64,000 nucleotides of DNA. Origin: Candidatus Woesebacteria bacterium GW2011_GWA1_39_21. Lineage in GTDB: Bacteria > Patescibacteriota > Microgenomatia > UBA8517. The translations under genes and the position numbers were made by a program. Positions 14,539 to 39,013 of the stretch are shown piece after piece (the stretch's first letter is position 1; the number at the start of each line of letters is the position of its first letter). The notes under the pieces were generated by a model. It worked only from the letters and a program-made list of their open reading frames with translations, had not been told where the DNA came from and made no database searches. The stretch is from contig LBWP01000002.1 of assembly GCA_000993685.1 (NCBI GenBank), positions 7,993 to 71,992 of the forward strand, given 5' to 3'.

Positions 14539-14540
14539 AT

Positions 14541-15281: not shown

Positions 15282-15282
15282 A

Positions 15283-15772: not shown

Positions 15773-18091
15773 TTACTCATGTGGCGGTTTAATATTACAT
15801 CCGGTTACGACACCATCCTCCTGTAAAAACCACTCTGTAAATTTATTAACAACCACTTCTTCACTATCGGGTTTTTTATATAAAAAACAGATTATGGTTT
15901 TTTTAAGTCCATTAGGAACCTCCCAGGAGTGATTTGTTGTATTTTCCAGTAGCTTGGTCATAATTCTGTTAAAAATTGGAGTAGCTCCAGTGACACCTGA
16001 GGCTACTCGAGCCATTGGGGAATTGTCGTTGTTTCCTACCCACACCGCGACTAGATAATTCTGGTTATAGCCAATGGTTAAATTGTCGCGCAGGTTATTG
16101 CTAGTTCCCGTCTTGACGGCAACTTCTTTATGAGCCGGAATGTTTAAGAGCGAGTTTTGCCCGAATGCGGGAGTGCGCGCCTTGTTATCTTTCAAAATGT
16201 CGGTAAGTATAAAAGCGACGCGTGGGTCGATAATCTGTTTGACGGACGCGGTGACTTTTTTCTCGACAACATTGTTTTGATTGTCGGTAATTTTTTCAAT
16301 TGGGTTGAAGTCAACTTTGTTACCGTAATTGGCAACCACCGAATAAACTTGGGCGAGGTCAATGAGTTTAATGTCACCTCCACCAAGAGTTAGTGAAAGT
16401 CCATAGTTCTTTGGGTTGGTCCAGGTTGTAATTCCCATCTCACGTCCCAGATCGATCATTTTGTCAACACCATAGCTGGCAAGCACTTTAACTGCGGGAA
16501 TGTTTCTTGATTGTGCAAAAGCGGATCTTAATGTTAAGTTTCCTTTAAATATTCCATCGTAGTTTTTTGGCGAGTAGGGTGGAGAGCCCTTGAAAGAAAA
16601 GGTGATTGGCGCATCGTTGATGGTTGTTGATGCTTGGTATCCGTGGCCGAGGGCATATGCGTAGTTAATTATTTTAATTGACGAACCAGGCTGCTGGAGT
16701 GATGTCACAATGTTTACCTGCCCGTCTTCATCGGAGTTGAAAAAATCTTTTGATCCTGCCATGGCCAAGATGTCTCCATTTTTTGGGTTGGCAACAATTA
16801 CGGCAGCGTTTGTGACGTGGTAGTTTGTCAGCTTTTTTAACTCCAGATTAATTTCAGAATCGACCATCGCCTGGATATTAAGATCGAGCGTAGTTGTTAT
16901 CTCTAAACCCCCCGCTTCAAGCACTTTATTACCATACTTCTTTTCCAGGAGGTCTCGAACAAATATTACGAAATGCGGAGCCAAAATTGGATTTTGTGGT
17001 TTAAAAAAAATCAGTTTCTCACTGTAGGCTTTTTGATAATCACCTTGGCTGATATATGAATTTTCAAGCATCGACCTTAAAATTTCTTTTTGTCTGTTTA
17101 GTAAATTTGTTGGGTTGTCGGTGTAGGGTGAAAGCTTGGTCGGGCTTTTTGGGAGAGCTGAAAGAAGTGACGCCTCGGTTAGGGTAAGATCTGTTGCGTT
17201 TTTGTTAAAATATCTTTGTGCCGCCTCCTGGATTCCATACTCGGTTCCGCCGTATGGAATTTGGTTAAGATACATTTGCAGAATTTCATTTTTTGAATAT
17301 ATTGATTCAACTTGTATAGCCAGAACAACCTCCTTGAGTTTCCGAACGATACTTTTTTCGGGTGTAAGGAGTGTGTTTTTTACCAGCTGTTGTGTAATTG
17401 TTGAACCCCCCTCCATTTTATTTTCTCTAATGTCTTTAACAAGTGCCCTCACAATTCCTTTTATTGAAATACCGTAGTGTTGGTAGAACTCGTTGTCTTC
17501 TGCTGCGAGAGTTGATAGGATAACTATTTTTGGAAGGCTTTCGAGTTTTACTGGGGTTCTGTTTTCGTCTTTGTAGATTTTATAAAGAAGAACGCCATTT
17601 CTGTCATATATTTTGGACGTTACCCTGAAATTGTATGAAGAAAGTTGACGGGGGGAAGGCAGGTCTTTAAAAATAAAATGCCAGCCTGGTAATCCAATAA
17701 GAAGTGTCATCACAAACGCAAAGGTAAACGTTTCTGCAAGACTTTTTACAACCGTCGTAACTGGAAAATCAATCTGACGTGTATGTCTACTAATTTTTTT
17801 TAGAAAACGAAGCAGGCTTTTTACCAGTTGTTTTGAGACAATTACTAGGAGATTGAAAAGAGTTGAGACGATAAAAAATATTATCTTAAAAATCACGGAA
17901 ACAACTCCTTTTTCCGTAAACACACTTTCCGTCACCATTACAATCATCGTGAGAAGAACAACGATCGCAAGAAGAAAAAAGTAAAAAGGTCTCCCAACCA
18001 AAAAGACCAAGTCTCGGGAAAAATTGAGACTTGCTTTTGCTAATTTTGAAAAACGGTTTCCATTTGTTTTGGCAGGTTTAGGGACACCCAC
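15773..18091 (-). CDS. class A penicillin-binding protein (transglycosylase/transpeptidase)
   Basis: An N-terminal TM anchor is present. GT51 motifs (EDNEFYQHYGIS; GGSTITQQLVKN) are present. Transpeptidase motifs (SxxK region SSIKII; KTGT) are present. Confidence 0.85.
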   Translation of the reverse strand: MGVPKPAKTNGNRFSKLAKASLNFSRDLVFLVGRPFYFFLLAIVVLLTMIVMVTESVFTEKGVVSVIFKIIFFIVSTLFNLLVIVSKQLVKSLLRFLKKISRHTRQIDFPVTTVVKSLAETFTFAFVMTLLIGLPGWHFIFKDLPSPRQLSSYNFRVTSKIYDRNGVLLYKIYKDENRTPVKLESLPKIVILSTLAAEDNEFYQHYGISIKGIVRALVKDIRENKMEGGSTITQQLVKNTLLTPEKSIVRKLKEVVLAIQVESIYSKNEILQMYLNQIPYGGTEYGIQEAAQRYFNKNATDLTLTEASLLSALPKSPTKLSPYTDNPTNLLNRQKEILRSMLENSYISQGDYQKAYSEKLIFFKPQNPILAPHFVIFVRDLLEKKYGNKVLEAGGLEITTTLDLNIQAMVDSEINLELKKLTNYHVTNAAVIVANPKNGDILAMAGSKDFFNSDEDGQVNIVTSLQQPGSSIKIINYAYALGHGYQASTTINDAPITFSFKGSPPYSPKNYDGIFKGNLTLRSAFAQSRNIPAVKVLASYGVDKMIDLGREMGITTWTNPKNYGLSLTLGGGDIKLIDLAQVYSVVANYGNKVDFNPIEKITDNQNNVVEKKVTASVKQIIDPRVAFILTDILKDNKARTPAFGQNSLLNIPAHKEVAVKTGTSNNLRDNLTIGYNQNYLVAVWVGNNDNSPMARVASGVTGATPIFNRIMTKLLENTTNHSWEVPNGLKKTIICFLYKKPDSEEVVVNKFTEWFLQEDGVVTGCNIKPPHE

Positions 18092-19832: not shown

Positions 19833-22298
19833 TTATGGTACGGATGTTGAGGTTGTGTTGACTAAAGGATAGTTTATTTTTGCCGATTCGCTGGCAATCG
19901 GGCAATCAAGACACACTAATGTACCGAGCGGGTCGAGCAAAAATGGATGGTTTTGTGTTTCAATATTTTCCGGTGGTGTGTCTGGGAATGCTAACATTCC
20001 GGTAGTTTTGTCGATTTGCAGATCCCTTTGTCCTGACTCGACATTTGCGCCGATGTTATCTTTAAGAAAATATTCAAATCTAGTTGGACATCCAGGGTTA
20101 CTTTCATCGGCAGGGAGGTTTCCGGTTGTTGCACAAACGTTTCTTCCGACAACGTTATCGGGTTGCCCGGGCCAGGCGTGGCCGTCGTCTTGGTTATAGA
20201 AACCTTTTTCTGCCTTGTCGAGTGTGTATTTGATGATCTTATTCCAAATAGGTGAGGCTCCGGAAACGCCGGAGACAGCACCACTCATCGCGGAGTTGTC
20301 GTTATTGCCGACCCAGACGACAACAACAACCTGTGGAGTGTAACCAATTGTCCAGTTATCCCGTCGGTCGTTGGTTGTCCCGGTTTTTACAGAAACTTCC
20401 GGATGACCGTTTACAACTAAATATGAACTCGGTCCGAACGCAGCAACTCGCGCATTGTTGTCGTATAAAACGTGCGATATGAGAAAGGTTGCGTCTGGAT
20501 CCAATATCCTTTGTCCGTCAACGTCATTGGGATTGTTGTCCTCATAAATTTTTCCCTTCCAATCCGTTACCTTGAGTATCGGGTTAAGGGGAACTTTTAC
20601 GCCGGCATTGGCAAAGACGCCGAAAGAAACCGCCATGTCATACGGTTTCACTTCGCCACCACCGAGTGTTAGTGACAAACCATAATTTTTGGGATCGGTT
20701 AGTGTTGTTATTCCCATATTTGTGGCAAAATAAATAAAATTTTCAAGGCCGTTTAGCGCAAGTACCCGCACTGCGGGAACATTATAGGAATTCCCCAAAG
20801 AAAACCTCGGTTGTACTGCGCCATGGAAAGTTCCGTCATAATTGACAGGGCAATACTCTTTCTGCCCAAAAACGTTGAAACACGTTGGTACGTCCGCCAA
20901 CGGAGTTGAAAGTGTTATTTTTTTGTCTCTAAGAGCAAGCGCGTAATTTAGGGGTTTTATCGACGACCCGGGTTGTCGGTTGGCAAGAATGACATTGAAT
21001 TTTCCATCCTCGTCTTTGGCAAAATAATCTTTGGAGCCAACCATTGCCAATATCTCACCTGACTTGGGTCGTGTGACTAATACAGCGCCGTTTCTAACAT
21101 TTTGTTTTTTAAGTTTTGCCAATTCTGCCGAAACGGTAGCCTCTGCGTATTCCTGAAGATCCAAGTCTAGTGTTGTTATCACACGAAGGCCGCCTTGTTC
21201 GACAACGGCGTCACCGTACTTATCTGCAAGTAGTTCTTTTACCCAAAGGGAAAAATGGGGGGCTTTGAATTTTTCCGGCTCTGCATAGTTGAGTTTCTCT
21301 GAGTTTGCCTCGTCAGCTTGTCCACTTGATATTAACCCATCCTCGACCATCCGCCGCAGTACTAGCTCTTGTCGAGTCTTTGCAATTTCAGGATGGGCGC
21401 CGAAAGGAGAATATTTTGTCGGAGCAGCCGTAATTCCCGCTAGGAGAGCCGCCTCTGATAAAGTTAAATCTTTGGCTTCTTTATTAAAATAAAGTTCGGA
21501 AGCGGCACCGATGCCGTAGGCAGTTGACCCGTACGGTATTTGGTTGAAATACATGCTTAGGATTTGTTTTTTGGAATACATCGCCTCAACAAAAACTGTA
21601 ATAACAATCTCTCTTAATTTTCTCTTTATCGTACGGTCTGGAGTAAGGAGCGCGTTTTTGACCAACTGCTGCGTAAGGGTTGATCCGCCTTGTAGTTTTT
21701 GTTTAAAAACAGTGTTATATGCTGCGCGGGCAATTCCGGTTAGTGAGATGCCGTGGTGTTTATAGAAATCCTTGTCCTCGATAGAAATTGTTGCATCAAC
21801 AACATAAGACGGAAGGCTGTCAACATCAACCGGTGTGCTTCTTTTGTCGGTATAGATTTCATAGATGGGTTTTCCTGTTCGGTCATAAATTTTAGTTGAA
21901 ACGGGAACTTGGGTTTGCAACAGCTTGGTTGGAAGTGGAAGTCCCCAAAAAAGCCATGTAAAAAACACAACCGCTGCGGCAAGTACCAAGAAAAAAAGTG
22001 TGAAACGAAGCCTATTATTTGCAAGTGGCGATTTACCAGCTTTTTGATCTTTCCTTGGGTTTGGGCCTTTTCTTTTATAGAAAATCTTTAACGGAAGTTG
22101 ATATATATACTTAAGAAGATGATAGATGGAAAGAAAAAGGTACTTTCCAACTTTTTGGAAAACTGTCCAAAAAAAAGATGATAGCTTTTTAAGGGTGGAT
22201 GTTTTGGTTTTGGTTAAGTTTTCATCAACGATTTTTGTGTGTTCAACTAAGGCCTTTCTTTTCTTGAGAACTTTTTTGTTTTTCATTTTGATGGACAT
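19833..22298 (-). CDS. class A penicillin-binding protein (second paralog)
   Basis: A TM anchor is present. GT51 motifs (EDKDFYKHHGIS; GGSTLTQQLVKN) are present. Transpeptidase motifs (SSIKPL; KTGT) are present. The C-terminal tail is long. Confidence 0.85.
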   Translation of the reverse strand: MSIKMKNKKVLKKRKALVEHTKIVDENLTKTKTSTLKKLSSFFWTVFQKVGKYLFLSIYHLLKYIYQLPLKIFYKRKGPNPRKDQKAGKSPLANNRLRFTLFFLVLAAAVVFFTWLFWGLPLPTKLLQTQVPVSTKIYDRTGKPIYEIYTDKRSTPVDVDSLPSYVVDATISIEDKDFYKHHGISLTGIARAAYNTVFKQKLQGGSTLTQQLVKNALLTPDRTIKRKLREIVITVFVEAMYSKKQILSMYFNQIPYGSTAYGIGAASELYFNKEAKDLTLSEAALLAGITAAPTKYSPFGAHPEIAKTRQELVLRRMVEDGLISSGQADEANSEKLNYAEPEKFKAPHFSLWVKELLADKYGDAVVEQGGLRVITTLDLDLQEYAEATVSAELAKLKKQNVRNGAVLVTRPKSGEILAMVGSKDYFAKDEDGKFNVILANRQPGSSIKPLNYALALRDKKITLSTPLADVPTCFNVFGQKEYCPVNYDGTFHGAVQPRFSLGNSYNVPAVRVLALNGLENFIYFATNMGITTLTDPKNYGLSLTLGGGEVKPYDMAVSFGVFANAGVKVPLNPILKVTDWKGKIYEDNNPNDVDGQRILDPDATFLISHVLYDNNARVAAFGPSSYLVVNGHPEVSVKTGTTNDRRDNWTIGYTPQVVVVVWVGNNDNSAMSGAVSGVSGASPIWNKIIKYTLDKAEKGFYNQDDGHAWPGQPDNVVGRNVCATTGNLPADESNPGCPTRFEYFLKDNIGANVESGQRDLQIDKTTGMLAFPDTPPENIETQNHPFLLDPLGTLVCLDCPIASESAKINYPLVNTTSTSVP

Positions 22299-24707: not shown

Positions 24708-24746
24708 CCGCGCAGCTTCATTTCGTGCGCGGGGTGGTTTATTTTG
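24708..24746 (+). terminator. rho-independent terminator
   Basis: Hairpin ccgcgca-gcttcatttcg-tgcgcgg is followed by ggtggtttatttt. It lies downstream of the 23993-24616 gene. Confidence 0.6.
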
Positions 24747-24836
24747 ATGTAGTTTCTTATAGTTGACTTGATGCAGGTAGCGTAAGAATATCTTTTCAGC
24801 ACTAGCGGTAGTATACTTTCTTTTCATTCATGAAAT

Positions 24837-25277
24837 ATGCGATGTCCTTTTTGTAGAGCGGCGAATACACAAGTTTTGGAGTCGAGAACGGTTGACGATG
24901 GCAGGTCATTACGAAGAAGACGGGAATGCTTAAAATGTAAAAAGCGTTTTACGACCTACGAAAAAGTTGGGGGATCTGCACTTTGGGTTGTCAAAAAGGA
25001 TGGTAGACGCGAGCCCTTTGATAGAGAAAAAGTAAAAAGAGGAGTTTTGCGGGCGGTTGAAAAAAGACCGGTTTCGATGGACTTTGTTAACGATTTGGTG
25101 GACCGGGTCGAGCGAGAAATGATGCGCAAGGAAAAAGAGGAGGTCTCAAGTAAGGCAATCGGTAAATCAGTGCTTAAGCGACTGAAAAGAATAGATAAAG
25201 TAGCGTGGTTGCGATTTGCAAGCGTCTATTTGCAATTTGAGGATTTGGAAGATTTCGCCAAAGCAATTAAGGAATAA
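24837..25277 (+). CDS. nrdR: transcriptional repressor NrdR
   Basis: An N-terminal zinc ribbon is present (MRCPFCRAANTQVLESR...CLKCKKRFTTYE). An ATP-cone domain follows. Confidence 0.9.
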   Translation: MRCPFCRAANTQVLESRTVDDGRSLRRRRECLKCKKRFTTYEKVGGSALWVVKKDGRREPFDREKVKRGVLRAVEKRPVSMDFVNDLVDRVEREMMRKEKEEVSSKAIGKSVLKRLKRIDKVAWLRFASVYLQFEDLEDFAKAIKE

Positions 25278-25324
25278 ATTTACAGCAACAAAGTTAAGAT
25301 GTGGTTTCGTAAATTACAATACTT

Positions 25325-27733
25325 ATGAAGGCAACAGAGTTTGATTACACTACCAAAACGCAATTGTCAGGAATAAGACAGAAACTATTTCTTGATCGTT
25401 ATTCGTTAAAAAACGAGAATGGTGAGCCGATCGAAAAATACCCTGAACATATGTGGAAGCGAGTGGCAGAGGCTTTGGCGGCAGTTGAAAAAACTTCAAA
25501 ATTGCGAAAAGTATGGGCGGATAAGTTTTATACATCAATGTTGGAATTCAAACTTTGTCCGGCGGGAAGATTTTTGACTTCAGCTGGGACAGGTACTGAT
25601 ACGACGATGATCAACTGTTATGTTCTTCCAAATCCTGAAGACACAAGAACGGGAATTATCAAAACTTTAGAATATGTTACGGAAATTTCTGCAAGAGGTG
25701 GTGGGGTTGGCTTTAATCTTTCGTCGCTGCGTCCCAGGGGTTCCTATCTAAAATCTGTTAATGGGACATCGTCGGGTGCGGTCTCTTGGGCAAATCTCTA
25801 TTCTGTGGCGGCACACGACATTATTCAACAGGGTGGAACAAGGCGGGGAGCTTTGATGTTGATGCTTTGGGATTGGCACCCCGATGTTGAGGAATTTATT
25901 ACCGTTAAAAGGGAGCAGGGGAAAATTCTTGGCGCCAATTTAAGCGTTTGTGTTTCCGACGAATTTATGAAGGCGTTAAAGGAAGATAAAGATTGGGATC
26001 TAAAGTTTCCAGATACAGATTTTGAAAAGTATCGCAGTGACTGGCATGGTGACATTAAGGGTTGGGAAAAGAAAGGTTATCCGGTCAAAGTTTATAAAAC
26101 GATCAGGGCTGTTGAGCTTTGGAATTTAATCTGTGATTCCGCTTGGGCGTCGGCAGAGCCGGGTATTGTCTTTTTGGATTTAGGAAATAGGATGAATAAC
26201 ACTTGGTATTTTGAAGAAAACATTTCAACAAATCCCTGCGGTGAACAACACTTGCCCGCGTGGGGCGTTTGCAATTTAAGCTCAATCAATTTATCGACTT
26301 TGGTTAAAGACGGGACGTTTGATTTCGACGAGTTTGGAAAAGTTATAAGAGTCGGCGTCAGATTTTTAGATAATGCTGTTGATACGGAGAACTATTTATA
26401 TTCGGAAATTAAAGAAGTACAGGAGAAAGAAAGAAGAATTGGTTTGGGAACTATCGGGCTAGCAGACGCACTGATTAAAATGAAGATTCGTTACGGTTCG
26501 CAAGAGTCTCACGCCTTTATTGAAAAGACCTTTAAGATGCTTCGTGATGTCGCATACGAGGAATCGATTTCTTTGGCAAAAGAGAAGGGCTCCTTCCCAC
26601 AGTTTATCGCAAATAAGTTTTTGTACAGCGGTTTTATAAAAACTTTGCCGAAAAGCATCAAGGACGGGATCAAAAAGTGGGGGATAAGAAACGCTTTAGT
26701 TTTAACCGAGGCGCCGACAGGTAAAATTTCTCTTTTGGCGGGTGCGTCGTCAGGCATTGAACCTGTCTTTTCGTTTTCTTACACCCAAAAAGATCGTTTG
26801 GGCGAAAGAACAATGTATCATCCTTTGTATCAAGAATGGGTCGATAAACATCCGGATGAGAAAATTCCTGATTATTTTGTTACAGCAGACGATCTGTCGC
26901 CTGAAGAACATATTAACGTTCAAGCCTTAATTCAAAAATACACGGATTCGTCGATTAGTAAAACGGTGAACGCCCCAAAGACACACTCGGTTTCTGATGT
27001 TAAAAAACTCTACCTTTTAGCCTATGAGAAAGGGTGTAAAGGTATTTCCTATATGCGCGAGGGTTCGCGTGAGGGGACGCTTGTTCGAGGTAGTAGCGAG
27101 GCGAAAAAAGAAACTGAAGAAGCAAAGAAAACTGAAGAGCAAAAAGCCAGTGTTTGGGTTAGACCAATTAAAATATCTGGATCCACCTATAGGTTAAAGA
27201 CCCCTGTGGGAACAGCTTTTATTACTGTAAATCATGACGAAACAGACTCTCCTGTTGAGACTTTCATTAACATCGGACGCGCCGGAAGCGATGTCCAAGC
27301 AATGGCGGAGGCGCTGGGTCGCGTGATTTCAAAGTCGTTGAAAATGGGAAGTAATTTGACAGGTAAAGAGAGGGCGATTTTAATGATCGAACAACTTCAG
27401 GGAATTGGTGGTTCAAGAAGTGTTGGTTTTGGTGCCGAACGAATTCTTTCACTCCCCGATGCAATCGCCAAAGCACTTTCTTTAGATATGGGACTTTTGC
27501 CACAGAAGCAAATGGAGATTCCTGTTCAGGAAAAATTGTTAAGCAATGGCCACACTAATGGTGTAGTTCACACGAACGGAGAGGTTGCCATATCTGAAAG
27601 CGTTGAAGATTCTGGAGACCAACTGTCGTTTTTGGCGAAGCATGCCGACTTTTGCCCGTCGTGTGGAAATGCCACGCTCGTTCACGAGATGGGTTGTAAA
27701 ACTTGCCATGGGTGTGGCTATTCTGAATGTTGA
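25325..27733 (+). CDS. nrdJ: class II (adenosylcobalamin-dependent) ribonucleotide reductase, no ATP-cone
   Basis: The active-site motif is NPCGEQHLPAWGVCNLSSINL. A C-terminal CxxC...CxxC zinc ribbon is present (CPSCGN...CKTCHGCGYSEC). Confidence 0.85.
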   Translation: MKATEFDYTTKTQLSGIRQKLFLDRYSLKNENGEPIEKYPEHMWKRVAEALAAVEKTSKLRKVWADKFYTSMLEFKLCPAGRFLTSAGTGTDTTMINCYVLPNPEDTRTGIIKTLEYVTEISARGGGVGFNLSSLRPRGSYLKSVNGTSSGAVSWANLYSVAAHDIIQQGGTRRGALMLMLWDWHPDVEEFITVKREQGKILGANLSVCVSDEFMKALKEDKDWDLKFPDTDFEKYRSDWHGDIKGWEKKGYPVKVYKTIRAVELWNLICDSAWASAEPGIVFLDLGNRMNNTWYFEENISTNPCGEQHLPAWGVCNLSSINLSTLVKDGTFDFDEFGKVIRVGVRFLDNAVDTENYLYSEIKEVQEKERRIGLGTIGLADALIKMKIRYGSQESHAFIEKTFKMLRDVAYEESISLAKEKGSFPQFIANKFLYSGFIKTLPKSIKDGIKKWGIRNALVLTEAPTGKISLLAGASSGIEPVFSFSYTQKDRLGERTMYHPLYQEWVDKHPDEKIPDYFVTADDLSPEEHINVQALIQKYTDSSISKTVNAPKTHSVSDVKKLYLLAYEKGCKGISYMREGSREGTLVRGSSEAKKETEEAKKTEEQKASVWVRPIKISGSTYRLKTPVGTAFITVNHDETDSPVETFINIGRAGSDVQAMAEALGRVISKSLKMGSNLTGKERAILMIEQLQGIGGSRSVGFGAERILSLPDAIAKALSLDMGLLPQKQMEIPVQEKLLSNGHTNGVVHTNGEVAISESVEDSGDQLSFLAKHADFCPSCGNATLVHEMGCKTCHGCGYSEC

Positions 27734-27742
27734 TATTTAAAA

Positions 27743-30064
27743 ATGAAAATTAGAAACGGCAAGGAACCAAAGACTAATATTTTTTCTCCAAAGTTAACCA
27801 ACAAACAAATTGCCTTAAAACCGGTAAAGTTTGAACTATATCGAAACAGAATCGGTAATTTGGATCTGTTGGTTACCAACGTTATCAAATCTTCGGGTAA
27901 GAAGGAACCTTTCAATCTGGAAAAAATCGAAAGAAGTATTTATTTTGCAGGAAGAGATACCGATGCTTATGGGAAAAAAGAAGCGCGAGAAATTTTGAAA
28001 AAGGTTTACATTGTACTTTCTCAAGTAAAGAGAAAGGTTATCACAACGGAAGGTGTTCGTCGGATAGTTGAGCCGATAATTGCCCAAGCGGGATACTTTG
28101 AAACAGCAAAATACTACATTCTCTTTAAAGAGCGCAAAGAGCAGTCGAAAAAAAGTGATTTCAAAATTTGGGAGCCAAAAATGACGGAAAATGCAAAAAC
28201 GGCCCTTGTTTCCCGTTGTGCGAAATTGGACGATGGTGGAAAGCCTTGTGAGACACCGGGACAAATTTTTTGGAGGGTGGCGAAACACATTGCAAAAGCC
28301 GAAATCAATTGGGGAGATGAAAGGGATGTGGATAAGGTTGCGCAAACTTTTTTCAAAAAGATGGTGGATTTTAAATTTATCTGCACGACGAGTGCAATGT
28401 ATGAAGCGGGTAACGAAGCTTGTATGCAGCAGTTGTCTCCCTGTTTTGTTTTAAAGATCGAAGACTCAATACCCAAGATTTTTCAGACACTCGGTGAGGC
28501 GGCGCTTATTCAAAAGAATTTTGGCGGAACGGGTTTTAATTTCAGTCAGATCAGATTTAGAGGCGACAAAGTGAGAAACGTTCCCAAAGCTGCCTCGGGA
28601 CCAGTTGATTTTTTACAAGTATATAGCGCTGCCTTGTCAAAAATTATGCAGGGATCCAAAAAGCACGGCGGAAATATGGGGATACTAAATATTGATCATC
28701 CGGACGTTGAAGAATTTATCAAGGTTAAAGACGAAGACGGTAATATGAAGAATTTTAATATTTCCGTTGGTGCAACGAATGAGTTTATGGATGCAGTTAT
28801 TGCGGACAAGAAATTTTCCCTAAAAAACCCGCGCGACGACAGTGTTGTTAAAAGTATTTCGGCCAAAAAACTGTTTCATGAAATTTGTGAGCATGCTTGG
28901 AAAACGGGAGATCCGGGAATGATATTTTTAGATCGGATGGAGGAGGATAATTATACCCCGACACTTGGTGTTCTAAACGCGACCAATCCTTGTGGTGAGC
29001 AACCGCTTCTTCCCTACGAATCGTGCAATCTCTCTTCGCTTCACCTGGCGAACCATCTCGTTAAAAAGAATGGTAAGTGGGAGGTTGATTGGGATGATTT
29101 GGGCGAGACGGTAAAGACACTCGTTCTCTTTTTGGACAATATGATTGAAACGAACAAGTATGTTTTACCGGAAACGGAGAAAATGGTCAAATACGGAAAT
29201 AGAAAAATTGGACTTGGCGTAATTGGTTTTGGTGAAACTCTTTTTAAACTCGGTATTGCCTATAATGGCCCTGAAGGTGTGAGAATTGCCGATAAAGTGG
29301 CAAAATTTATTAAAGCAAAGGCTGAAGAAGCTTCGCTCGAATTGGCCAGGGTCCGTGGAGTTTTCCCCAATTGGGATATTTCAACTTATAAAGGTACGGC
29401 AGAAAAATATAGAAATTGTACAATGATGACGATTGCCCCAACAGGAACGGTTTCGATGATTGGTGACACTACGTCAGGTATTGAGCCGTCTTTTGCTTTG
29501 GTTTATGTACGCCATTCGTTTTACAACGAAGATAAAAATAATAATTCCACAAGGCAGCTTTACTATGTTGATAAAAATTTTGAAAAGGTCTTGTTAGACA
29601 GGGGTGTATATTCGAAAGGGCTGATCCAAAAAGTAGCAGAGAATCATGGGTCGGTGCATGATTTGAAGGAAATTCCGAGTGAAATTCGTAAGGTATTTGT
29701 GACGACTCACGACATTCACCCGCAATGGCATGTTAAGATTCAAGCAGCTTTTCAAAAATATACCGACAATGCGGTTTCAAAGACAATTAATTTTTCCAAC
29801 GACGCCACAATTTCCGACATTGAAGATGCGTACATGTTAGCCTGGAAATTGGGATGTAAGGGAATAACAATTTATCGTGACGGGAGCAAGGAGGATCAGG
29901 TCTTGAATGCCGGGAGTGTAAAAGTTGCCGGTGAGAAGGTAAAAACAGCGGAATCAGAAGCTGAATTTGCGGAAAAAGAGTGTCCGGAATGTAGTGGGGT
30001 CTTGGAGTTTGAGGGTGGATGCGTAAGTTGCAAAGAATGTGGTTGGAGCGAATGTAAACTTTGA
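27743..30064 (+). CDS. nrdJ: class II ribonucleotide reductase with N-terminal ATP-cone (paralog 2)
   Basis: The ATP-cone sequence is LLVTNVIKSSGKKEPFNLEKIERSIYFAG. The active-site motif is NPCGEQPLLPYESCNLSSLHL. A C-terminal zinc ribbon is present (CPECSG...CVSCKECGWSEC). Confidence 0.85.
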   Translation: MKIRNGKEPKTNIFSPKLTNKQIALKPVKFELYRNRIGNLDLLVTNVIKSSGKKEPFNLEKIERSIYFAGRDTDAYGKKEAREILKKVYIVLSQVKRKVITTEGVRRIVEPIIAQAGYFETAKYYILFKERKEQSKKSDFKIWEPKMTENAKTALVSRCAKLDDGGKPCETPGQIFWRVAKHIAKAEINWGDERDVDKVAQTFFKKMVDFKFICTTSAMYEAGNEACMQQLSPCFVLKIEDSIPKIFQTLGEAALIQKNFGGTGFNFSQIRFRGDKVRNVPKAASGPVDFLQVYSAALSKIMQGSKKHGGNMGILNIDHPDVEEFIKVKDEDGNMKNFNISVGATNEFMDAVIADKKFSLKNPRDDSVVKSISAKKLFHEICEHAWKTGDPGMIFLDRMEEDNYTPTLGVLNATNPCGEQPLLPYESCNLSSLHLANHLVKKNGKWEVDWDDLGETVKTLVLFLDNMIETNKYVLPETEKMVKYGNRKIGLGVIGFGETLFKLGIAYNGPEGVRIADKVAKFIKAKAEEASLELARVRGVFPNWDISTYKGTAEKYRNCTMMTIAPTGTVSMIGDTTSGIEPSFALVYVRHSFYNEDKNNNSTRQLYYVDKNFEKVLLDRGVYSKGLIQKVAENHGSVHDLKEIPSEIRKVFVTTHDIHPQWHVKIQAAFQKYTDNAVSKTINFSNDATISDIEDAYMLAWKLGCKGITIYRDGSKEDQVLNAGSVKVAGEKVKTAESEAEFAEKECPECSGVLEFEGGCVSCKECGWSECKL

Positions 30065-30085
30065 CCGAATAAAACCAATCCTGTT

Positions 30086-32227
30086 ATGAAAAAAACAAAA
30101 CAAGTTATCAAAGCTAATGGTAATTTTCAGGAATTCGACACTGAAAAAATTTACAAAAGTATTTGGTTGGCTGCGCAAAATGTCGGTGGAAAGGATGATA
30201 AAACTGCGGTATTGCTTAAAAATGAAGTCGTTGCTGTACTCACAGAGAAATATCCAAATGGGGAGTACATCAAAACTTCGGAGATTGGCGAGATTGTCGA
30301 AAAGGTTCTGATTGAACACGGACATGCAAAAACAGCAAAAGAATTCATCCGCTTTCGGGAAAATAAAAAGCACTATCGTCAGGACAAAGAAAGCCTTGGG
30401 ATTAAAGACGATATCGGTTTGGGTTACAACACGCTGTATATTTTAAAGGAACGTTACCTTAAAAGAGACGAAAAGGGAAAGATTATTGAGACACCAAAGG
30501 GAATGTTTAAGCGGGTGGCAAAGTTTTTGGCAAGTGTTGAAAAGACAAAAGCACTTCGTGATAAATGGTATGAAAAATTTTATGACGTCATGGTTAAATT
30601 TGAGTTTCAACCGGGAACTAGACCGCTGGCCAACGCTGGAAAAAAAGAAGCACAACTTGGAAATTGTTTTGTCTGGCCGCTGAATGATGACATCAATCAT
30701 ATCTTTAAAATCCTGCACGAGTCGACTCTGATTAAAAAGCACGGTGGGGGGTGTGGTTATAACTTTTCCAATTTACGACCCGAGGGAGATGCTGTCGGTG
30801 GGATTCCAGATCTTGCGGCGGGCCCGGTCAAAATAATTGAAATGTTTGATTTAATGACCTCGCTTTTCAGACAAGAGGGAAAATACGAAAGCGGAAACAT
30901 GGCTGTTTTAAATGCCAACCACGCAGACATCTTTAATTTTATTTCCGCAAAACAAACTGACGGACATCTCTCAAAAACGAACATTTCTGTCGGTATTACG
31001 GATGAATTCATGAACGCAGCCCTTGAGGGAAAAGATTGGAAACTGATTAACCCAAGAAACGGTGAGGTGGTTAATGTTGTTAAGGCAAAATCGGTTCTTG
31101 AACTGATGGCGGCGATGGCCTGGCAAACCGGTGACCCGGGAATTCTTAATCTTTCTGCGATTAACAAGGGAAACCAATTTGGAAATCCGCTTTTGAAAAA
31201 GTGCGGACCGATAATGTCAACAAATGTTTGTGGAGAAATTCCACAGTACCCATACGAGTCCTGCAATTTGGGTTACGTCAACTTTACCAAATTTATAAAA
31301 GGTAAATCGTTTGATTTTGCGCATTTAAAAGAGGTGGTGGCAATTGCAGTCAGGTTGATGGACAACGTCATTTCCGCATCGTGGTTTCCAGTTCCCGAGG
31401 TTACAAAATCAGTGCAAGACCATCGAAGAATTGGAATTGGCTGTGTTGGTTGGGCGGAAACTTTAGCGAGGCTTGAAATTCCCTATGACAGTGAAGAAGC
31501 TTATGAGCTGGCGGAAAAAGTTACAAGGGCGATGTATCAATCCGCTTTTGTAACATCGGCCAAACTTGCCAAAGAAAAGGGGCCTTTTCCCCTTATATCT
31601 GATTCGATTTGGGCAAATAAAAAAGATAAACCACGAAACGTTGCGCTTTTGACTTTTCCGCCGTCTAGTGGAAATGCTGTCATTGCCGAAACAACTTTTG
31701 GTATTGAACCATACTTTGCTTTGGCCTATGAGCAAAATGTTCTTGGGGGAATGAGGCTTCGGACAATCATTCCGTATTTTGTCGAGAAATTAAAGGAAAG
31801 AGGAATTTATTCAGAAGAGCTAGTTCAAAAAGTTATCGACAATCATGGAAGTATTCAGGCACTTTCCGAAATCCCAGCCGATTTAAAAAAGATCTTCAAA
31901 GTTGCTCACGATATCCGGTGGCGGGATCATATCAAAATGCAGGCGGCTTTCCAAAAATGGACCGATAACGCAATCACAAAAACGATCAACATGCCCTCAA
32001 GTGCGACTCCAAACGATATTGAAGAAGCATACACTTTGGCTTGGAAATTGGGGTGCAAGGGACTGACGGTTTACCGTGATCGAACGAAAAAAGATCAGGT
32101 CTTTGAATTTGGAAAATCGGAGAATGACGTCATTTCTGTCAAGTGTCCCAATTGTGAAGCGCTGCTTACTAAGGAAAGAAAATGCTACAAATGTAAGAAG
32201 TGTGGATATTCGACGTGTGAAATTTGA
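30086..32227 (+). CDS. nrdJ: class II ribonucleotide reductase with N-terminal ATP-cone (paralog 3)
   Basis: The ATP-cone sequence is KQVIKANGNFQEFDTEKIYKSIWLAAQ. The active-site motif is TNVCGEIPQYPYESCNLGYVNF. A C-terminal zinc ribbon is present (CPNCEA...CYKCKKCGYSTC). Confidence 0.85.
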   Translation: MKKTKQVIKANGNFQEFDTEKIYKSIWLAAQNVGGKDDKTAVLLKNEVVAVLTEKYPNGEYIKTSEIGEIVEKVLIEHGHAKTAKEFIRFRENKKHYRQDKESLGIKDDIGLGYNTLYILKERYLKRDEKGKIIETPKGMFKRVAKFLASVEKTKALRDKWYEKFYDVMVKFEFQPGTRPLANAGKKEAQLGNCFVWPLNDDINHIFKILHESTLIKKHGGGCGYNFSNLRPEGDAVGGIPDLAAGPVKIIEMFDLMTSLFRQEGKYESGNMAVLNANHADIFNFISAKQTDGHLSKTNISVGITDEFMNAALEGKDWKLINPRNGEVVNVVKAKSVLELMAAMAWQTGDPGILNLSAINKGNQFGNPLLKKCGPIMSTNVCGEIPQYPYESCNLGYVNFTKFIKGKSFDFAHLKEVVAIAVRLMDNVISASWFPVPEVTKSVQDHRRIGIGCVGWAETLARLEIPYDSEEAYELAEKVTRAMYQSAFVTSAKLAKEKGPFPLISDSIWANKKDKPRNVALLTFPPSSGNAVIAETTFGIEPYFALAYEQNVLGGMRLRTIIPYFVEKLKERGIYSEELVQKVIDNHGSIQALSEIPADLKKIFKVAHDIRWRDHIKMQAAFQKWTDNAITKTINMPSSATPNDIEEAYTLAWKLGCKGLTVYRDRTKKDQVFEFGKSENDVISVKCPNCEALLTKERKCYKCKKCGYSTCEI

Positions 32228-32265
32228 ATTGATAAAGTTTCTACTCCCCCATATACTTCAAGAAA

Positions 32266-32802
32266 ATGACAATCTACACGAAAAAGGGCGATAAGGGTAA
32301 GACAGGACTATTTAAGAAGGTTAACGGTAAATCGGTGCGTGTTTCAAAATCTTCTTGTAACACCCGAGCAATTGGCGCGATTGACGAGGTTGACAGTTTT
32401 ATCGGTGTTGTCATTTCGCTCTCGCACGATGAGTATCTGAAGGAGAGGTTGCATCAAGTTCAAAACAATTTATTAACAACCGGTTCAATTCTCGCCGGTT
32501 CTGATTTAAAAATTCAACCGAGCGAAACAAAAAAGCTCGAAAAAGAAATCGACGAATGCGATAAATTTCTTCCCGCACTAACCAATTTTATTTTTCCGGG
32601 AGGGAGTCCGATCGCAGCTTATTTACAATACGCAAGAACACTGGCAAGAAAAGCGGAGCGGGAAGTGGTTGCGCTAAATGAAGAAACTCGCATATCGGCT
32701 TCAATATTAAAATATATCAACCGTCTTTCGGACTATCTTTTTACCCTGGCAAGAGTGGAGAATTTTAAATTGAAAGTCAAAGACGAAGTCTGGAAGAAAT
32801 AG
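32266..32802 (+). CDS. pduO: PduO-type ATP:cob(I)alamin adenosyltransferase
   Basis: The N-terminal signature is MTIYTKKGDKGKTGLF. The 178-aa length fits this family. It lies immediately downstream of the B12-dependent RNRs. Confidence 0.8.
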   Translation: MTIYTKKGDKGKTGLFKKVNGKSVRVSKSSCNTRAIGAIDEVDSFIGVVISLSHDEYLKERLHQVQNNLLTTGSILAGSDLKIQPSETKKLEKEIDECDKFLPALTNFIFPGGSPIAAYLQYARTLARKAEREVVALNEETRISASILKYINRLSDYLFTLARVENFKLKVKDEVWKK

Positions 32803-32851: not shown

Positions 32852-33208
32852 ATGCCTGATGTGGAAAGAGAAAATGTTACTTCTGTACAGCCGTTGGTGA
32901 AAGAACGTCCGACAGACATGGAAATTCCACCGGAGTTGGAGCGTGGAGGAGTAGCTCAGGCGGTACCAAGTCAATTTAAAGGCCAGGTTAACGACGATTT
33001 CGGGAAACCCCTAATTCAGACACCACCAGCTTCGGCGGTAACAATTCAGGTTCCGGCTTCACAACAACAATTGGAAGGCTGGTCAAAAGGCGATCCTGAA
33101 AACGCTCTGACTTGGTTTGCGGTTTTTTGGATTCGATTGATTAAAAAGGCACTTCATTTTAGTTGGCGAATGGTTAAAAAAATTACAGGAGGTGAGCCAA
33201 ATGTATAG
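32852..33208 (+). CDS. hypothetical small protein with C-terminal hydrophobic helix
   Basis: The protein is Pro/Gln-rich and ends with a TM-like segment (LTWFAVFWIRLIKKAL). It overlaps the start of the ATPase gene. Confidence 0.3.
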   Translation: MPDVERENVTSVQPLVKERPTDMEIPPELERGGVAQAVPSQFKGQVNDDFGKPLIQTPPASAVTIQVPASQQQLEGWSKGDPENALTWFAVFWIRLIKKALHFSWRMVKKITGGEPNV

Positions 33209-35525
33209 TGAAGTCGAGGTTGCGATGATATTGTTACTAGTATTCTCTCTTTTTATTTTTGTTGTGGCTGTTGCAGTATTTTTTATTGTTACTCAAATTA
33301 AACACAGAAATCGTGAGGAGGAATCGATTGACTCAGTACTACTGCAAGTTGCAGTTCACAAAAATAACGAAATAAAAATTGATGCGATGGAACAGCTTTT
33401 TTCGGCTTTGTATTCAATCAAGGGGGGTGGTTGGAAGCAAAAATACAAAACACAACCGATATTGTCGTTTGAAATTGTTGCAAAAAAAGAGGACATCAGA
33501 TTTTACGTCTGGACGCCGAAGAAGTTTAAGGACATGATCGAAAAACAAATTCACGGTGCATACCCTGACGCAGAGGTAATAGAAGTTCAGGAATATAACA
33601 TTTTTACAGAAGAGGGGAAGGTTGCCTACAAATGCCTGCAATTGGCACGGGACAATTTTTATCCGATTAAGACTTTTAAGGAGTTGCCAACAGATCCTAT
33701 GTCGGTTATTACTTCAGCACTTGCCAAGATGGGAGATGGTGAAGCGGCAGCAATCCAGATTTTGATTTCTCCTGCTGATAGCACCTGGAGCAAACAGGGA
33801 ACGTCTTTCATCTCCGCTACCAAAAAGCAGGAAGCTGATCCGGAAAAGGCAAAGTTTTCCGTTCCGGCAAAAACACTGGAAGCGGTGGAAAATAAAGTTA
33901 CCAAATCGGGCTTTGATACGTCAGTTCGAATTGTCGTTGTGTCGAAAGATAAAGAATCGGCAAAATCGCATCTTTCGAACATTTCCAGTTCTTTCGCCCA
34001 GTTTAATGGAGATCTTAACTATCTCAAAAGCCGCGTGATCCGACAGAAGGGTGCATTTATTGAGGATTTTATTTACAGGTACCATCCAATGTTCCACGTC
34101 TTCGGCAATAAAAAATCAATTCTGAGTGTTGAGGAATTGGCGTCAATTTATCATTTTCCTAATAAAGCTATTACCACACCGCACATTAAATGGGTTTATT
34201 CGAAAACAGCTCCGGCACCTTCCGCAATTCCCGAATCCGGTATCTATTTGGGAGTAAGTTCTTATCAGGGAACAAAACGTCCAGTCTACATTTCTGATGA
34301 GGATCGGATGCGCCACATGTACATTGTCGGAAAAACCGGTGTCGGGAAGTCGGAGTTTTTAAAAGACCTAGTAATTCAAGATATTAGAAACGGTCAAGGA
34401 GTTTGTTTTATTGATCCGCACGGTGATGCGGTGGAAGATTTGTTGAACCTTATTCCTCCCGAGCGGGCAGAGGACGTAATTTACTTTAATCCTTCGGATT
34501 CCGAGCGGCCGATAGGACTTAACTTATTGGAAGCCAATACGGAAGATCAAAAACATTTTGCAGCCACAGCTGTGATTAATATGATGTACAAGCTTTTTGA
34601 TCCTTACAAAACGGGTATTGTCGGCCCACGTTTCGAACACGCTGTCAGAAATGCAATGCTTACGGCAATGAGTGATGAAGGTTCGACTTTTGTTGAAGTG
34701 ATGCGAATTTTAACCGACTCGCGTTATGTGCAAGAACTTCTTCCAAAAGTTACCGACCCGATAGTGAGGCGGTATTGGACAGATCAAATTGCACAGACCT
34801 CCGACTTTCATAAATCCGAAGTTTTGGATTACATCACCTCAAAATTCGGGCGCTTTGTCACAAACAGAATGATTAGAAATATTATCGGCCAATCTGAATC
34901 GTCTTTCTCGTTGCGTAGAGTTATGGACGAAGGGAAAATTCTATTTATTAATTTATCAAAGGGAACAATCGGTGAGGAAAACTCCAGCTTTTTGGGGCTC
35001 ATTTTGGTTCCAAGAATACTAATGGCGGCGATGAGTAGGACTGATGTTCCAAAGGAACAAAGACGCCCTTTTTATCTTTATGTTGACGAGTTTCAGAATT
35101 TTGCCACGCCGGACTTCGCAGTAATTTTATCCGAGGCGAGAAAATATGCACTGGCACTTTGTGTGGCGAATCAGTTTATCGGGCAAGTTGAGGAAGAAGT
35201 CAAAAATGCGGTTTTTGGTAACGTTGGAACAATTGTTTCTTTCCGAATTGGAACCACCGATGCTAATTATCTGCAGCACGAATTCGCTCCGGTTTTTGCT
35301 GAGGACGACCTATTAAATATCGAGAAATATCACGTCTACATTAAAACGACCGTCAACAACGAACCTGTACCTCCATTTTCAATGGACTTATTCCGTGATA
35401 TGGACAAGTTGAAGGCGATGGAAAATCCTAAAGTTGCCGGAATCATCAAAGAAATGAGCCGTCTTAACTACGGGCGTGACTTAAAACTGGTCGAGGCAGA
35501 AATCGCGCGAAGAGCAAAACTGTAA
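33192..35525 (+). CDS. membrane-anchored HerA/VirB4/VirD4-superfamily P-loop ATPase (type IV coupling-protein-like)
   Basis: An N-terminal TM helix is present. Walker A is GKTGVGKSEF. The sequence CFIDPHGD is a DPxGE-like motif. Walker B is FYLYVDEFQNF. Confidence 0.55.
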   Translation: MSQMYSEVEVAMILLLVFSLFIFVVAVAVFFIVTQIKHRNREEESIDSVLLQVAVHKNNEIKIDAMEQLFSALYSIKGGGWKQKYKTQPILSFEIVAKKEDIRFYVWTPKKFKDMIEKQIHGAYPDAEVIEVQEYNIFTEEGKVAYKCLQLARDNFYPIKTFKELPTDPMSVITSALAKMGDGEAAAIQILISPADSTWSKQGTSFISATKKQEADPEKAKFSVPAKTLEAVENKVTKSGFDTSVRIVVVSKDKESAKSHLSNISSSFAQFNGDLNYLKSRVIRQKGAFIEDFIYRYHPMFHVFGNKKSILSVEELASIYHFPNKAITTPHIKWVYSKTAPAPSAIPESGIYLGVSSYQGTKRPVYISDEDRMRHMYIVGKTGVGKSEFLKDLVIQDIRNGQGVCFIDPHGDAVEDLLNLIPPERAEDVIYFNPSDSERPIGLNLLEANTEDQKHFAATAVINMMYKLFDPYKTGIVGPRFEHAVRNAMLTAMSDEGSTFVEVMRILTDSRYVQELLPKVTDPIVRRYWTDQIAQTSDFHKSEVLDYITSKFGRFVTNRMIRNIIGQSESSFSLRRVMDEGKILFINLSKGTIGEENSSFLGLILVPRILMAAMSRTDVPKEQRRPFYLYVDEFQNFATPDFAVILSEARKYALALCVANQFIGQVEEEVKNAVFGNVGTIVSFRIGTTDANYLQHEFAPVFAEDDLLNIEKYHVYIKTTVNNEPVPPFSMDLFRDMDKLKAMENPKVAGIIKEMSRLNYGRDLKLVEAEIARRAKL

Positions 35526-35603: not shown

Positions 35604-35679
35604 GGCCTGGTAACTCAGTGGTTAGAGTGCCATTCTTATAAAATGGAAGTCGATGGTTCGAACCCATCCCAGGCCACCA
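35604..35679 (+). tRNA. tRNA-Ile (anticodon UAU), CCA encoded
   Basis: I hand-folded a cloverleaf. The acceptor pairs ggcctgg/ccaggcc. The D-stem pairs actc/gagt. The anticodon stem pairs ccatt/aatgg around loop cttataa, giving anticodon UAU at positions 34-36. The T-arm pairs gatgg/ccatc with loop ttcgaac. The 3' end is ACCA. Confidence 0.75.
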
Positions 35680-38575: not shown

Positions 38576-39013
38576 GGCCGCAATTATAACATTGGATCAA
38601 AAGCAGAACAAATTATTGGAAAACATTGAAGCGTTATTATTTCCGTTTATTGTTGCGGGGTCAGGAGTTGGACCTGATCTGGAAGATTATGCACCTTCTT
38701 GTGTTACCACAAGGGTAGGACTATATCATCATCCCGGCTTTAATCGGGAGTTTGGCGTGTAGTCTCTACGGAGTCCAAAATAAAATATTTTAATTTTAAA
38801 AAGGTTCCCTCGGTATTGTCCTGACATAATCAGGGTGTCCACCGATATAGCCAAATTCTCATTTATAATTACTCATAAATGGGCCCATTTCTACTAGCCT
38901 TCCGTGCAGCCGTACACTACCCCGCATGTCAACGAACAAACCATATTATATTTACTTTATACTGTGAAAGCAACATGGAATTGTACCTGCGTGAATAGTA
39001 TAATATTACTTGA

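Follow-up and report, generated by a model that had tools for sequence, protein, structure and literature searches.

A predicted deoxyribonucleotide-supply operon with three class II ribonucleotide reductases in Candidatus Woesebacteria bacterium GW2011_GWA1_39_21

De novo synthesis of DNA precursors depends entirely on ribonucleotide reductase (RNR), and in the standard view one enzyme, switched allosterically through loop 2, makes all four deoxyribonucleoside triphosphates (dNTPs). A 64,000-nt stretch of DNA from Candidatus Woesebacteria bacterium GW2011_GWA1_39_21, the window to which coordinates refer, has three class II RNR (NrdJ) genes in tandem, here termed J1, J2 and J3. They lie behind the regulator gene nrdR and are followed by pduO, which encodes a PduO-type ATP:cob(I)alamin adenosyltransferase. 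The question is why a genome of about 1 Mb, in which redundancy should be costly, has three such enzymes. That some organisms hold several oxygen-independent class II RNRs has been acknowledged as puzzling (Schell et al. 2021, PMC8365446).

The explanation favoured here is that the locus is a deoxyribonucleotide-supply operon with three non-redundant, differently tuned RNR isozymes. This is considered probable, with ample room left for doubt. By homology, one promoter region with a lineage-specific NrdR box and a weak half-box would drive nrdR and the three adenosylcobalamin (AdoCbl)-dependent RNRs, and NrdR would repress the operon, its own gene included, when dATP is high relative to ATP. 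PduO would turn scavenged cobalamin into AdoCbl. J1, J2 and J3 would divide ribonucleotide reduction by phosphorylation state and/or base, and by feedback control. A preliminary description of the window, made from the sequence alone, had suggested sub-functionalisation, and this stands as the best reading in that the three enzymes differ in apical and distal loops, loop 2, ATP-cone and length of the C-terminal domain (Table 1). The operon would be a compact natural test system, with three co-regulated NrdJs that represent three phosphate loops, three specificity loops and three regulatory architectures.

Three complete reductases and their substrate-binding elements

The class II assignment is based on the NrdJ_Z model TIGR02504, and all three proteins score above its cutoff of 399.95 bits (Table 2). 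The gene string of nrdR, three full-length reductase genes and pduO has the coordinates and lengths reported in the preliminary description. The stop-to-start gaps are 9 nt between J1 and J2 and 21 nt between J2 and J3, not 10 and 22 nt as given there; those between nrdR and J1 and between J3 and pduO are 47 nt and 38 nt. There is no NrdB-, NrdF- or NrdG-type gene among the annotated genes of the 64-kb window, which, with pduO next to the reductases, gives contextual support for AdoCbl-dependent radical generation that needs no further subunit.

Ungapped HMMER alignments to Thermotoga maritima NrdJ show that equivalents of Cys134, Asn320, Cys322, Glu324 and Cys333 are kept in J1, J2 and J3, and these five residues are invariant throughout the ortholog clades. 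C322 carries the thiyl radical, C134 and C333 are the redox pair, and N320 and E324 bind the ribose 3'-OH (PMC4728125). The active-site motifs are NPCGEQ in J1 and J2 and NVCGEI in J3, as described before, and no copy lacks the catalytic cysteines. At the C-terminus each protein has an array of six cysteines, C-x2-C-x9/10-C-x2-C-x2-C-x4-C; the cysteine tail of the preliminary description is present in all three, but comprises more than the CxxC-x-CxxC given there. J1, J2 and J3 are shown by these residues to be complete class II RNR genes, in which the catalytic and electron-shuttle functions are, as judged from sequence, intact.

The three proteins have different domain architectures. ATP-cones are detected by Pfam (cutoff 25.8) at residues 46–132 of J2 (53.5 bits) and 6–95 of J3 (61.9 bits). 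J1 has no ATP-cone, which agrees with the earlier account, and carries instead a TSCPD-type C-terminal domain (match at residues 628–720). An array of six conserved cysteines on a C-terminal domain of 150–220 aa is the signature of the class II cysteine-rich domain (CRD), which mediates re-reduction, with electrons that can cross between subunits (PMC5704485). This signature is complete in J1 alone, where the long, cysteine-rich domain spans approximately residues 586–802 (about 217 aa) and has the six cysteines at its end. J2 and J3 have it in part, with short tails of about 40–50 aa beyond the catalytic core that hold the six-Cys array. The likeness to the NrdJd of Stackebrandtia nassauensis (Loderer et al. 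2017, PMC5704485) is in the terminal six-Cys array, which has near-equal spacing, and in the size of the J1 domain; unlike that enzyme, J2 and J3 keep the array without the hydrophobic body of the CRD. Pseudomonas aeruginosa NrdJa and NrdJb also represent more than one adjacent nrdJ gene, and there the CRD function may come from a separate polypeptide. However, that system is one enzyme split into a catalytic and a CRD part, whereas the window has three complete enzymes, each with its own core and Cys tail.

The apical phosphate loop sets specificity for ribonucleoside diphosphates (NDPs) versus triphosphates (NTPs): P-N-S-P is found in NDP reducers, and P-[ASG]-G-R, P-S-M-R and P-Q-G-S-P in NTP reducers (PMC8365446). 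In T. maritima, P-N-S-P is P89–P92, in which Ser91 bonds the beta-phosphate. Loop 2 links the effector site to the active site, and its Arg (R298 in E. coli, R207 in T. maritima) touches the substrate base and beta-phosphate; the R298A mutation leaves the E. coli enzyme with essentially no activity, and its yeast counterpart is lethal (PMC4728125). The loop-2 Gln is Q294 in E. coli and Q203 in T. maritima, and the effector site has Asp141, Lys158 and Arg171 (PMC4728125). Among approximately 45 NrdJs of diverse bacterial and archaeal phyla, the apical P-N-S-P, loop 2 of the form [IV]KQGGxRRGANMG and the distal IAPTGTIS are near-invariant. None of J1, J2 and J3 carries P-N-S-P; it is present in the Jx enzymes of other Woesebacteria, a cone-less, long-tailed NrdJ family.

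J1 has a canonical loop 2 with both Gln and Arg retained. In its effector site Lys158 is replaced by Ala, with an Arg at the next position. The apical loop agrees with the NTP-reducer motif P-[ASG]-G-R, and 93 of 120 clusters of the J1 family have P[AG]GR. By analogy to characterised enzymes, J1 would reduce triphosphates, with canonical allosteric control of specificity and none of overall activity.

J2 is close to the canonical loop 2 and has a normal distal loop. Arg207 is Lys in the window protein (Arg in most of the J2 family) and Arg208 is His. The apical C-T-T-S fits neither the published NDP nor the published NTP motifs. J3 is the most altered at loop 2: the Gln is retained, but Arg207 is Tyr and Arg208 is Glu, and the Gln/Arg combination is absent. 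In its apical P-G-T-R, Thr takes the place of Gly or Met at the third position, and no such variant was found in PMC8365446. These substitutions are fixed over most of the J3 clade, i.e., loop 2 reads [RK]Q[ED]G[KR]YESGNM in 117, the distal loop FPPSS[GS]NA in 111 and the apical loop PG[TS]R in 102 of 120 database clusters. Both J2 and J3 retain the effector-site Asp141, Lys158 and Arg171. A comparison of the specificity loops, as proposed in the preliminary description, thus gives a loop 2 that is canonical in J1, altered in J2 and changed from Arg to Tyr in J3.

Table 1. Substrate-binding and regulatory elements of the three reductases
Element	J1	J2	J3
Apical loop	P-A-G-R	C-T-T-S	P-G-T-R
Loop 2	QQGGTRRGA	QGSKKHGGN	RQEGKYESGN
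Distal loop	APTGKIS	APTGTVS	FPPSSGNA
ATP-cone N-terminal motif	none	K-S-S-G	K-A-N-G
C-terminal domain	long (~217 aa)	short tail	short tail

K-R-x-G at the N-terminus of the ATP-cone is a nucleotide-phosphate motif (K9/R10 in E. coli NrdA). Its Arg is lost in both cones of the window. The position is variable across the J3 clade, where K-R-[DN]-G is kept solely by the orthologs in two deep-branching loci, L023 and L026 (L-numbers denote related genome loci, viewed with 10-kb flanks).

The dimeric T. maritima NrdJ (PDB 1XJE and related entries) is the best solved-structure match of J1, J2 and J3 (E = 9e-72 to 9e-105) and shares the catalytic residues. It differs from J1 in the apical motif and at Lys158, and from J2 and J3 in that these bear N-terminal ATP-cones. 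The T. maritima enzyme has P-N-S-P, KQGSRRRGA and APTGSIS in the three loops where J3 has P-G-T-R, RQEGKYESG and PPSSGNA. From conservation, J2 and J3 are predicted to be active enzymes in which recognition of phosphate and base departs from the canonical pattern. In J3 the fixed loss of the loop-2 Arg goes together with a new Arg in the apical loop, and one could speculate that a phosphate contact has been relocated.

A stronger proposal is put forward tentatively, as a possibility with the odds against it. J3 may represent an undescribed, Woesebacteria-wide subclass of class II RNR with a substrate site rewired at three places, apical (P-N-S-P to P-G-[TS]-R), distal (APTGTIS to PPSSGNA) and loop 2 (Tyr for an Arg regarded as universal and essential), while the radical chemistry is kept. 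Such an enzyme would reduce a subset of ribonucleotides, or ribonucleotides in another phosphorylation state, and two or three RNRs would be needed for the four dNTPs. The C-T-T-S of J2 would then be a second, independent change in phosphate recognition, within an NTP-like clade. The J3 family is abundant (well over 100 sequence clusters), strictly conserved and without the loop-2 Arg which the E. coli and yeast enzymes cannot do without. Its study could reveal a new mode of substrate recognition in RNRs, and how dNTP pools are balanced in bacteria of the candidate phyla radiation (CPR), which scavenge their nucleotides and B12. A division of labour of this type, if true, would depart from the textbook single RNR that is switched allosterically to make all four dNTPs.

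The NrdR box and the transcription unit

The NrdR protein of the window has a Zn-ribbon bearing an RRRR motif and an ATP-cone. Known NrdR sites consist of two 16-bp palindromic boxes with a spacer of 15–16 bp (or 25–26 bp) that overlap the promoter (PMC12051234, PMC9110341). The preliminary description had proposed boxes of the canonical form acaCwAtATaTwGtgt upstream of nrdR and J1. No match to this consensus with three or fewer mismatches is found near the operon, and there is no NrdR box in the gap between nrdR and J1; a box of a different form is present upstream of nrdR (Table 2). It belongs to the palindrome tCACTA-N4-TAGTGa, which was found by comparison of the regions upstream of nrdR in 16 loci. 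With one mismatch or less this palindrome is present in 12 of the 16 regions (3.7 kb in total), compared with 3 matches in about 359 kb elsewhere, i.e., the lineage-specific box is enriched more than 100-fold over background upstream of nrdR. The box of the window is the sole match at this threshold in the 64 kb, and scores 10/16 against the canonical consensus. A partner box 31–33 bp upstream (three or fewer mismatches) is found in 8 of 14 relatives, against 2.1% under the null. In the window this position is taken by a distal half-box, which has 5/10 core mismatches, is not significant alone and overlaps a weak -35-like sequence.

The arrangement resembles the nrdRJ unit of Streptomyces coelicolor, where nrdR is directly 5' of nrdJ, NrdR has the same Zn-ribbon (RRRR) and ATP-cone, and a promoter palindrome has a second box position one 15-bp spacer away. 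The Streptomyces unit is autoregulated by paired NrdR boxes and has one nrdJ, whereas the window has three nrdJ genes of three families, then pduO. The box core CACTA-N4-TAGTG also differs, with a center that tolerates G and C instead of the AT-rich canonical form, and the distal box is degenerate.

A terminator-like hairpin that ends the upstream DUF5667 gene is taken to mark the 5' boundary of the nrd transcription unit. Scans for terminators and promoters inside the gene string gave nothing above shuffle expectation, and thus speak neither for nor against internal transcription units. The tight spacing behind nrdR fits the co-transcription suggested earlier, with the short gaps at both reductase junctions and no internal terminator signal above background. 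From the layout of the genes, nrdR through J3 are thus likely to share one autoregulated transcript. pduO may be transcribed on its own, perhaps from the promoter-like site that precedes it (Table 2), although promoter-like sites are no more frequent in the region than in shuffled sequence. In support of a separate transcript, NUDIX or MazG genes often stand between pduO and the nrd genes in relatives. One relative (L015) has a perfect CACTA-N4-TAGTG at position 12202, about 70 nt 5' of pduO, where the window has no such box. In some relatives pduO may be separately under NrdR control.

Families, partners of J3 and competing explanations

J1, J2 and J3 have pairwise identities of 31–38%. Neighbour-joining trees of all NrdJ open reading frames (ORFs) from 78 related genome loci, together with database homologs, place them in three separate NrdJ families, each with 100% bootstrap. 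This comparison, proposed in the preliminary description, changes the view given there of three divergent paralogs: the three are not divergent copies of one gene but represent ancient NrdJ families brought together by modular assembly. A recent tandem duplication is ruled out by the low identity and by the three families, each with relatives outside the genome. The J2 subclade with C-T-[TR]-S (99%) is nested inside a CPR-wide clade with C-S-G-K or C-A-G-K.

With such a tandem of related genes, an assembly or annotation artefact has to be considered, whether from a repeat that was collapsed or chimeric or from fewer genes broken up by frameshifts. Assemblies from JGI, ENA and Logan, which represent several groundwater sequencing runs, contain 13 contigs with the identical J2 protein, and its neighbours are unchanged on every contig whose flanks exist. 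Orthologous triples are found in four loci, L011, L013, L087 (CP065002.1, a closed 1.27-Mb genome) and L091 (a 432-kb contig). The orthologs there have identities of 68–75%, close to the values of the flanking genes, and the flanking synteny is preserved. Database matches suggest at least 12 contigs with all three families, of which the four were verified directly. The same arrangement in 13 independent contigs, a closed genome and long contigs of related species refutes an artefact and leaves it a negligible probability. Truncated or frameshifted copies and a collapsed assembly of one gene, both raised in the preliminary description, are also not borne out, as every ORF runs intact over its full length and the copies are too dissimilar.

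The distribution of the families shows J3 as the constant element. It is present in every Woesebacteria-type locus examined, with 53–78% identity, and in each of the 25 loci with visible upstream DNA the gene immediately before it encodes another NrdJ. The upstream enzyme varies. It is Jx in 13 loci, with no Jx in the window, a J1-like enzyme in L018, an enzyme of another family (Jy) in L024 and L026, and an ATP-cone-bearing, RTPR-like enzyme of monomeric type in L023. In the sub-lineage of the window the slot is filled by J1 plus J2. A J1-type and J2-type pair lies behind nrdR with no J3 in another Microgenomates lineage (L092), and the Gottesmanbacteria locus L086 has a lone J1-type gene. 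Because the J1+J2 pair exists without J3 and the partners of J3 vary, the operon looks modular, with a J1+J2 module in the slot upstream of J3. As judged from this distribution, J3 would be the constant Woesebacteria enzyme that needs a second NrdJ beside it, and in the sub-lineage of the window the J1+J2 module would have replaced the usual P-N-S-P partner Jx.

The presence of three NrdJ genes was earlier called unusual for a reduced genome. Woesebacteria as a rule have two NrdJ genes in tandem, three are conserved in the sub-lineage, and multi-NrdJ genomes have been documented: more than one NrdJ is present in 1108 of 24,059 GTDB genomes, and these show a preference for mixed predicted specificities, found in 760 of the 1108 (69%) (Schell et al. 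2021, PMC8365446). As in those genomes, the window has several oxygen-independent NrdJs with differing apical motifs, of which the P-A-G-R of J1 is an NTP motif. It differs from them in that P-N-S-P is absent, C-T-T-S and P-G-T-R are not listed there, the genes are tandem in one NrdR operon, and the distal loop and loop 2 of J3 are also changed.

A simple NDP plus NTP complementarity was rejected as the full reason for the pairing. The window has no P-N-S-P enzyme, and J3 has partners of both types, which a simple division between NDP and NTP reduction cannot explain. Since J3 always has a partner, which can be of either type, it is most likely restricted in what it reduces, and the enzymes would not complement each other along a plain NDP/NTP line.

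The constant pairing of J3 can also be read in terms of a hetero-oligomer, in which J3, and J2, short-tailed and cone-bearing, assemble with a cone-less enzyme that has a long CRD (J1 in the window, Jx or Jy in other loci). The cone-less enzyme would give oligomerisation and electron relay, and J2 and J3 would give regulatory cones or altered active sites. J3 is indeed beside a cone-less NrdJ in 24 of the 25 loci with visible upstream DNA, and where the C-terminus of the partner is visible it is long with a TSCPD-type domain. The six-Cys tail of J1 is nearly identical to that of Jx in L015. The CRD of the characterised NrdJd drives formation of higher oligomers in which electrons cross subunits, and NrdJd without a CRD is found only in genomes that also hold a CRD-bearing one (PMC5704485). 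The short junctions between the genes, and overlaps in L091, fit co-translation. However, J2 and J3 own complete six-Cys arrays and have no obvious need of the tail of a partner; the partner in L023, the exception among the 25, is of the monomeric RTPR-like type without that CRD; and partners from several unrelated families are hard to fit with a specific interface. A hetero-oligomer is thus regarded as rather doubtful.

The fluidity of the slot upstream of J3 bears on a further alternative, i.e., that the RNRs are interchangeable, without specialisation of any consequence, and are kept for dosage or robustness or were acquired transiently by horizontal transfer. Catalytic residues and cofactor logic are the same in all three, and RNR genes are reportedly often transferred horizontally. 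If the three enzymes are equivalent, the finding shrinks to a lineage-specific gene arrangement of modest interest. Redundancy is unlikely in view of the family-specific, fixed substitutions in elements that are near-invariant in other NrdJs, and of the co-inheritance of the triple in several species-level lineages at about 70% identity with no decay. These are streamlined genomes of about 1 Mb, in which 7 kb of redundant genes would be costly.

The alterations of J3 suggest another possibility: J3, and possibly J2, may be catalytically dead, a regulatory protein that senses nucleotides through the effector site or ATP-cone and modulates a canonical partner. J3 is without the loop-2 Arg whose change to Ala all but abolishes activity in E. 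coli. Its phosphate loops depart from the usual form, the canonical Arg is missing from its ATP-cone, and it is accompanied by another NrdJ in 25 of 25 visible loci. On the other side, the five catalytic residues and the six tail cysteines are invariant in more than 100 clusters of the J3 family, which is not expected of a non-catalytic protein, and the Lys/Arg at the preceding position of loop 2 together with the new apical Arg could replace the lost charge. A pseudo-enzyme is therefore very unlikely.

The operon of three differently tuned isozymes remains the preferred explanation, and a number of points weigh against it. The functional statements rest on motif-to-function rules from a handful of characterised enzymes, and the apical motifs of J2 and J3 are outside those tested. 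The nearest tested analogue of J3, a phage enzyme mutated to P-A-S-R, simply lost activity (PMC8365446), and with the essential loop-2 Arg lost J3 could be catalytically weak. The partners of J3 are both NDP-type (Jx, with P-N-S-P) and NTP-type (J1, and the RTPR-like enzyme in L023). The trees are neighbour-joining trees, in which deep branching, including that of J3 among the P-N-S-P enzymes, is weak (16–39%). With regard to regulation, the window has one good NrdR box and a degenerate distal one. The good box by itself is not significant, as 47 of 100 shuffles give at least one match, and co-transcription was deduced from spacing only.

The existence of nrdR-nrdJ operons, the six-Cys domain, PduO and multi-NrdJ genomes is already described. 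A search of the literature gave no account of tandem NrdJ operons in Patescibacteria, and nothing relevant on RNRs in CPR/Patescibacteria. The apical motifs P-G-[TS]-R and C-T-[TR]-S were not found in it, nor was an NrdJ family without the loop-2 Arg. In PMC8365446 there are no Thr-containing apical motifs in the paper, and CPR/Patescibacteria are absent from its supplements. The NCBI names for these proteins are generic only.

Several observations were made on the related loci. The RTPR-like class II RNR of L023 (7709–9973), directly 5' of a J3 ortholog, has an N-terminal ATP-cone and an apical P-S-M-R. It scores 298 bits against TIGR02505, under the cutoff of 340, and monomeric-type NrdJs may seldom carry an ATP-cone. 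In L071, L073, L074, L075, L077 and L078 the NrdJ genes are split close to the NPCGE active-site region by insertions of about 1 kb, and four NrdJ proteins (P0179, P0190, P0214 and P0219) are 1120–1140 aa long with the intein/homing-endonuclease domains PF14528 and PF14890. The insertions and extra-long forms are likely inteins. A number of records of metagenome-assembled genomes are labelled 'uncultured Gammaproteobacteria', 'Pseudomonadales' or 'Saccharibacteria' (L011–L014, L016, L020, L021, L023, L029 and L030). Their gene content and synteny are of the Woesebacteria type and their proteins are about 70% identical to those of the window; the taxonomic labels look wrong.

Cofactor supply and neighbouring genes

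The PduO adenosyltransferase downstream of the reductases is confirmed with scores above the thresholds of TIGR00636 and PF01923 (Table 2), and pduO is syntenic with nrd genes in most related loci. The window has no btuFCD-like gene, no homolog of DUF4430 or DUF6580 and no redoxin gene; B12 uptake by btuFCD, which the preliminary description had raised, has no genes within the 64 kb. In three relatives, L008, L086 (15214–16250) and L087 (18702–19800), genes for a DUF4430 protein and a DUF6580 membrane protein adjoin pduO. DUF4430 is a domain at the C-terminus of vertebrate cobalamin binders (PMC4350170). The pair is a candidate system for cobalamin capture and uptake.

Table 2. Features of the window discussed in the text
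Feature	Position	Strand	Details
Fur-family regulator with ABC-3 type metal ABC transporter	13768–15711	-	
Class A penicillin-binding protein	15773–18091	-	transglycosylase + transpeptidase
Class A penicillin-binding protein	19833–22298	-	transglycosylase + transpeptidase
Terminator-like hairpin and T-run	24718–24747	+	stem 24718–24737, then TTTATTTT; ends upstream DUF5667 gene
Weak -35-like sequence	24763–24768		TTGACT; overlaps distal half-box
Distal NrdR half-box, weak	24768–24783	+	TTGATGCAGGTAGCGT; right half TAGCG alone fits; 15-bp spacer to proximal box
Proximal NrdR box, predicted	24799–24814	+	GCACTAGCGGTAGTAT; core CACTA-N4-TAGTG; 37 nt 5' of nrdR ATG
nrdR	24837–25277	+	TIGR00244 195.4 bits (cutoff 124.65); PF22811 and PF03477
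J1, class II RNR, 802 aa	25325–27733	+	TIGR02504 566.5 bits
J2, class II RNR, 773 aa	27743–30064	+	TIGR02504 621.2 bits
J3, class II RNR, 713 aa	30086–32227	+	TIGR02504 578.3 bits
Promoter-like site	32229–32257	+	TTGATA, 17 nt, TATACT; 10/12 matches
pduO, PduO-type ATP:cob(I)alamin adenosyltransferase, 178 aa	32266–32802	+	TIGR00636 164.1 bits (cutoff 108.45); PF01923 168 bits (cutoff 24)
118-aa ORF	32852–33208		no family match
DUF8128/TrwB-like ATPase	33192–35525		
tRNA-Ile	35604–35679	+	anticodon TAT (UAU), ARAGORN
tRNA-Met(CAT) gene with group I intron	38654–38925	-	intron Rfam RF00028, 75 bits, 38697–38905

Genes for NUDIX and MazG-type nucleotide pyrophosphohydrolases are found in or beside the nrd-pduO cluster of other loci (L087, 17209–18069; L091, 15044–16718; L092, 5972–6391), and the cluster of the window is without them. 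These neighbours suggest a wider neighbourhood for dNTP-pool maintenance. The 118-aa ORF and the gene for a DUF8128/TrwB-like ATPase that follow pduO also trail the nrd-pduO genes in at least 14 related loci.

Other features of the window lie farther from the operon. On the minus strand upstream, a Fur-family regulator is found with an ABC-3 type metal ABC transporter, and close to these genes are two class A penicillin-binding proteins. Downstream of the operon is a predicted tRNA-Ile with the anticodon UAU, an uncommon bacterial way to read AUA. A group I intron is located within a tRNA-Met gene that was missed by ARAGORN. The exon ends GCGGGGT... and ...ACCCCGCA pair as the acceptor stem, and in-silico removal of the intron restores tRNA-Met in 98 combinations of splice boundaries. 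Group I introns in tRNA genes of Patescibacteria have reportedly been described of late.

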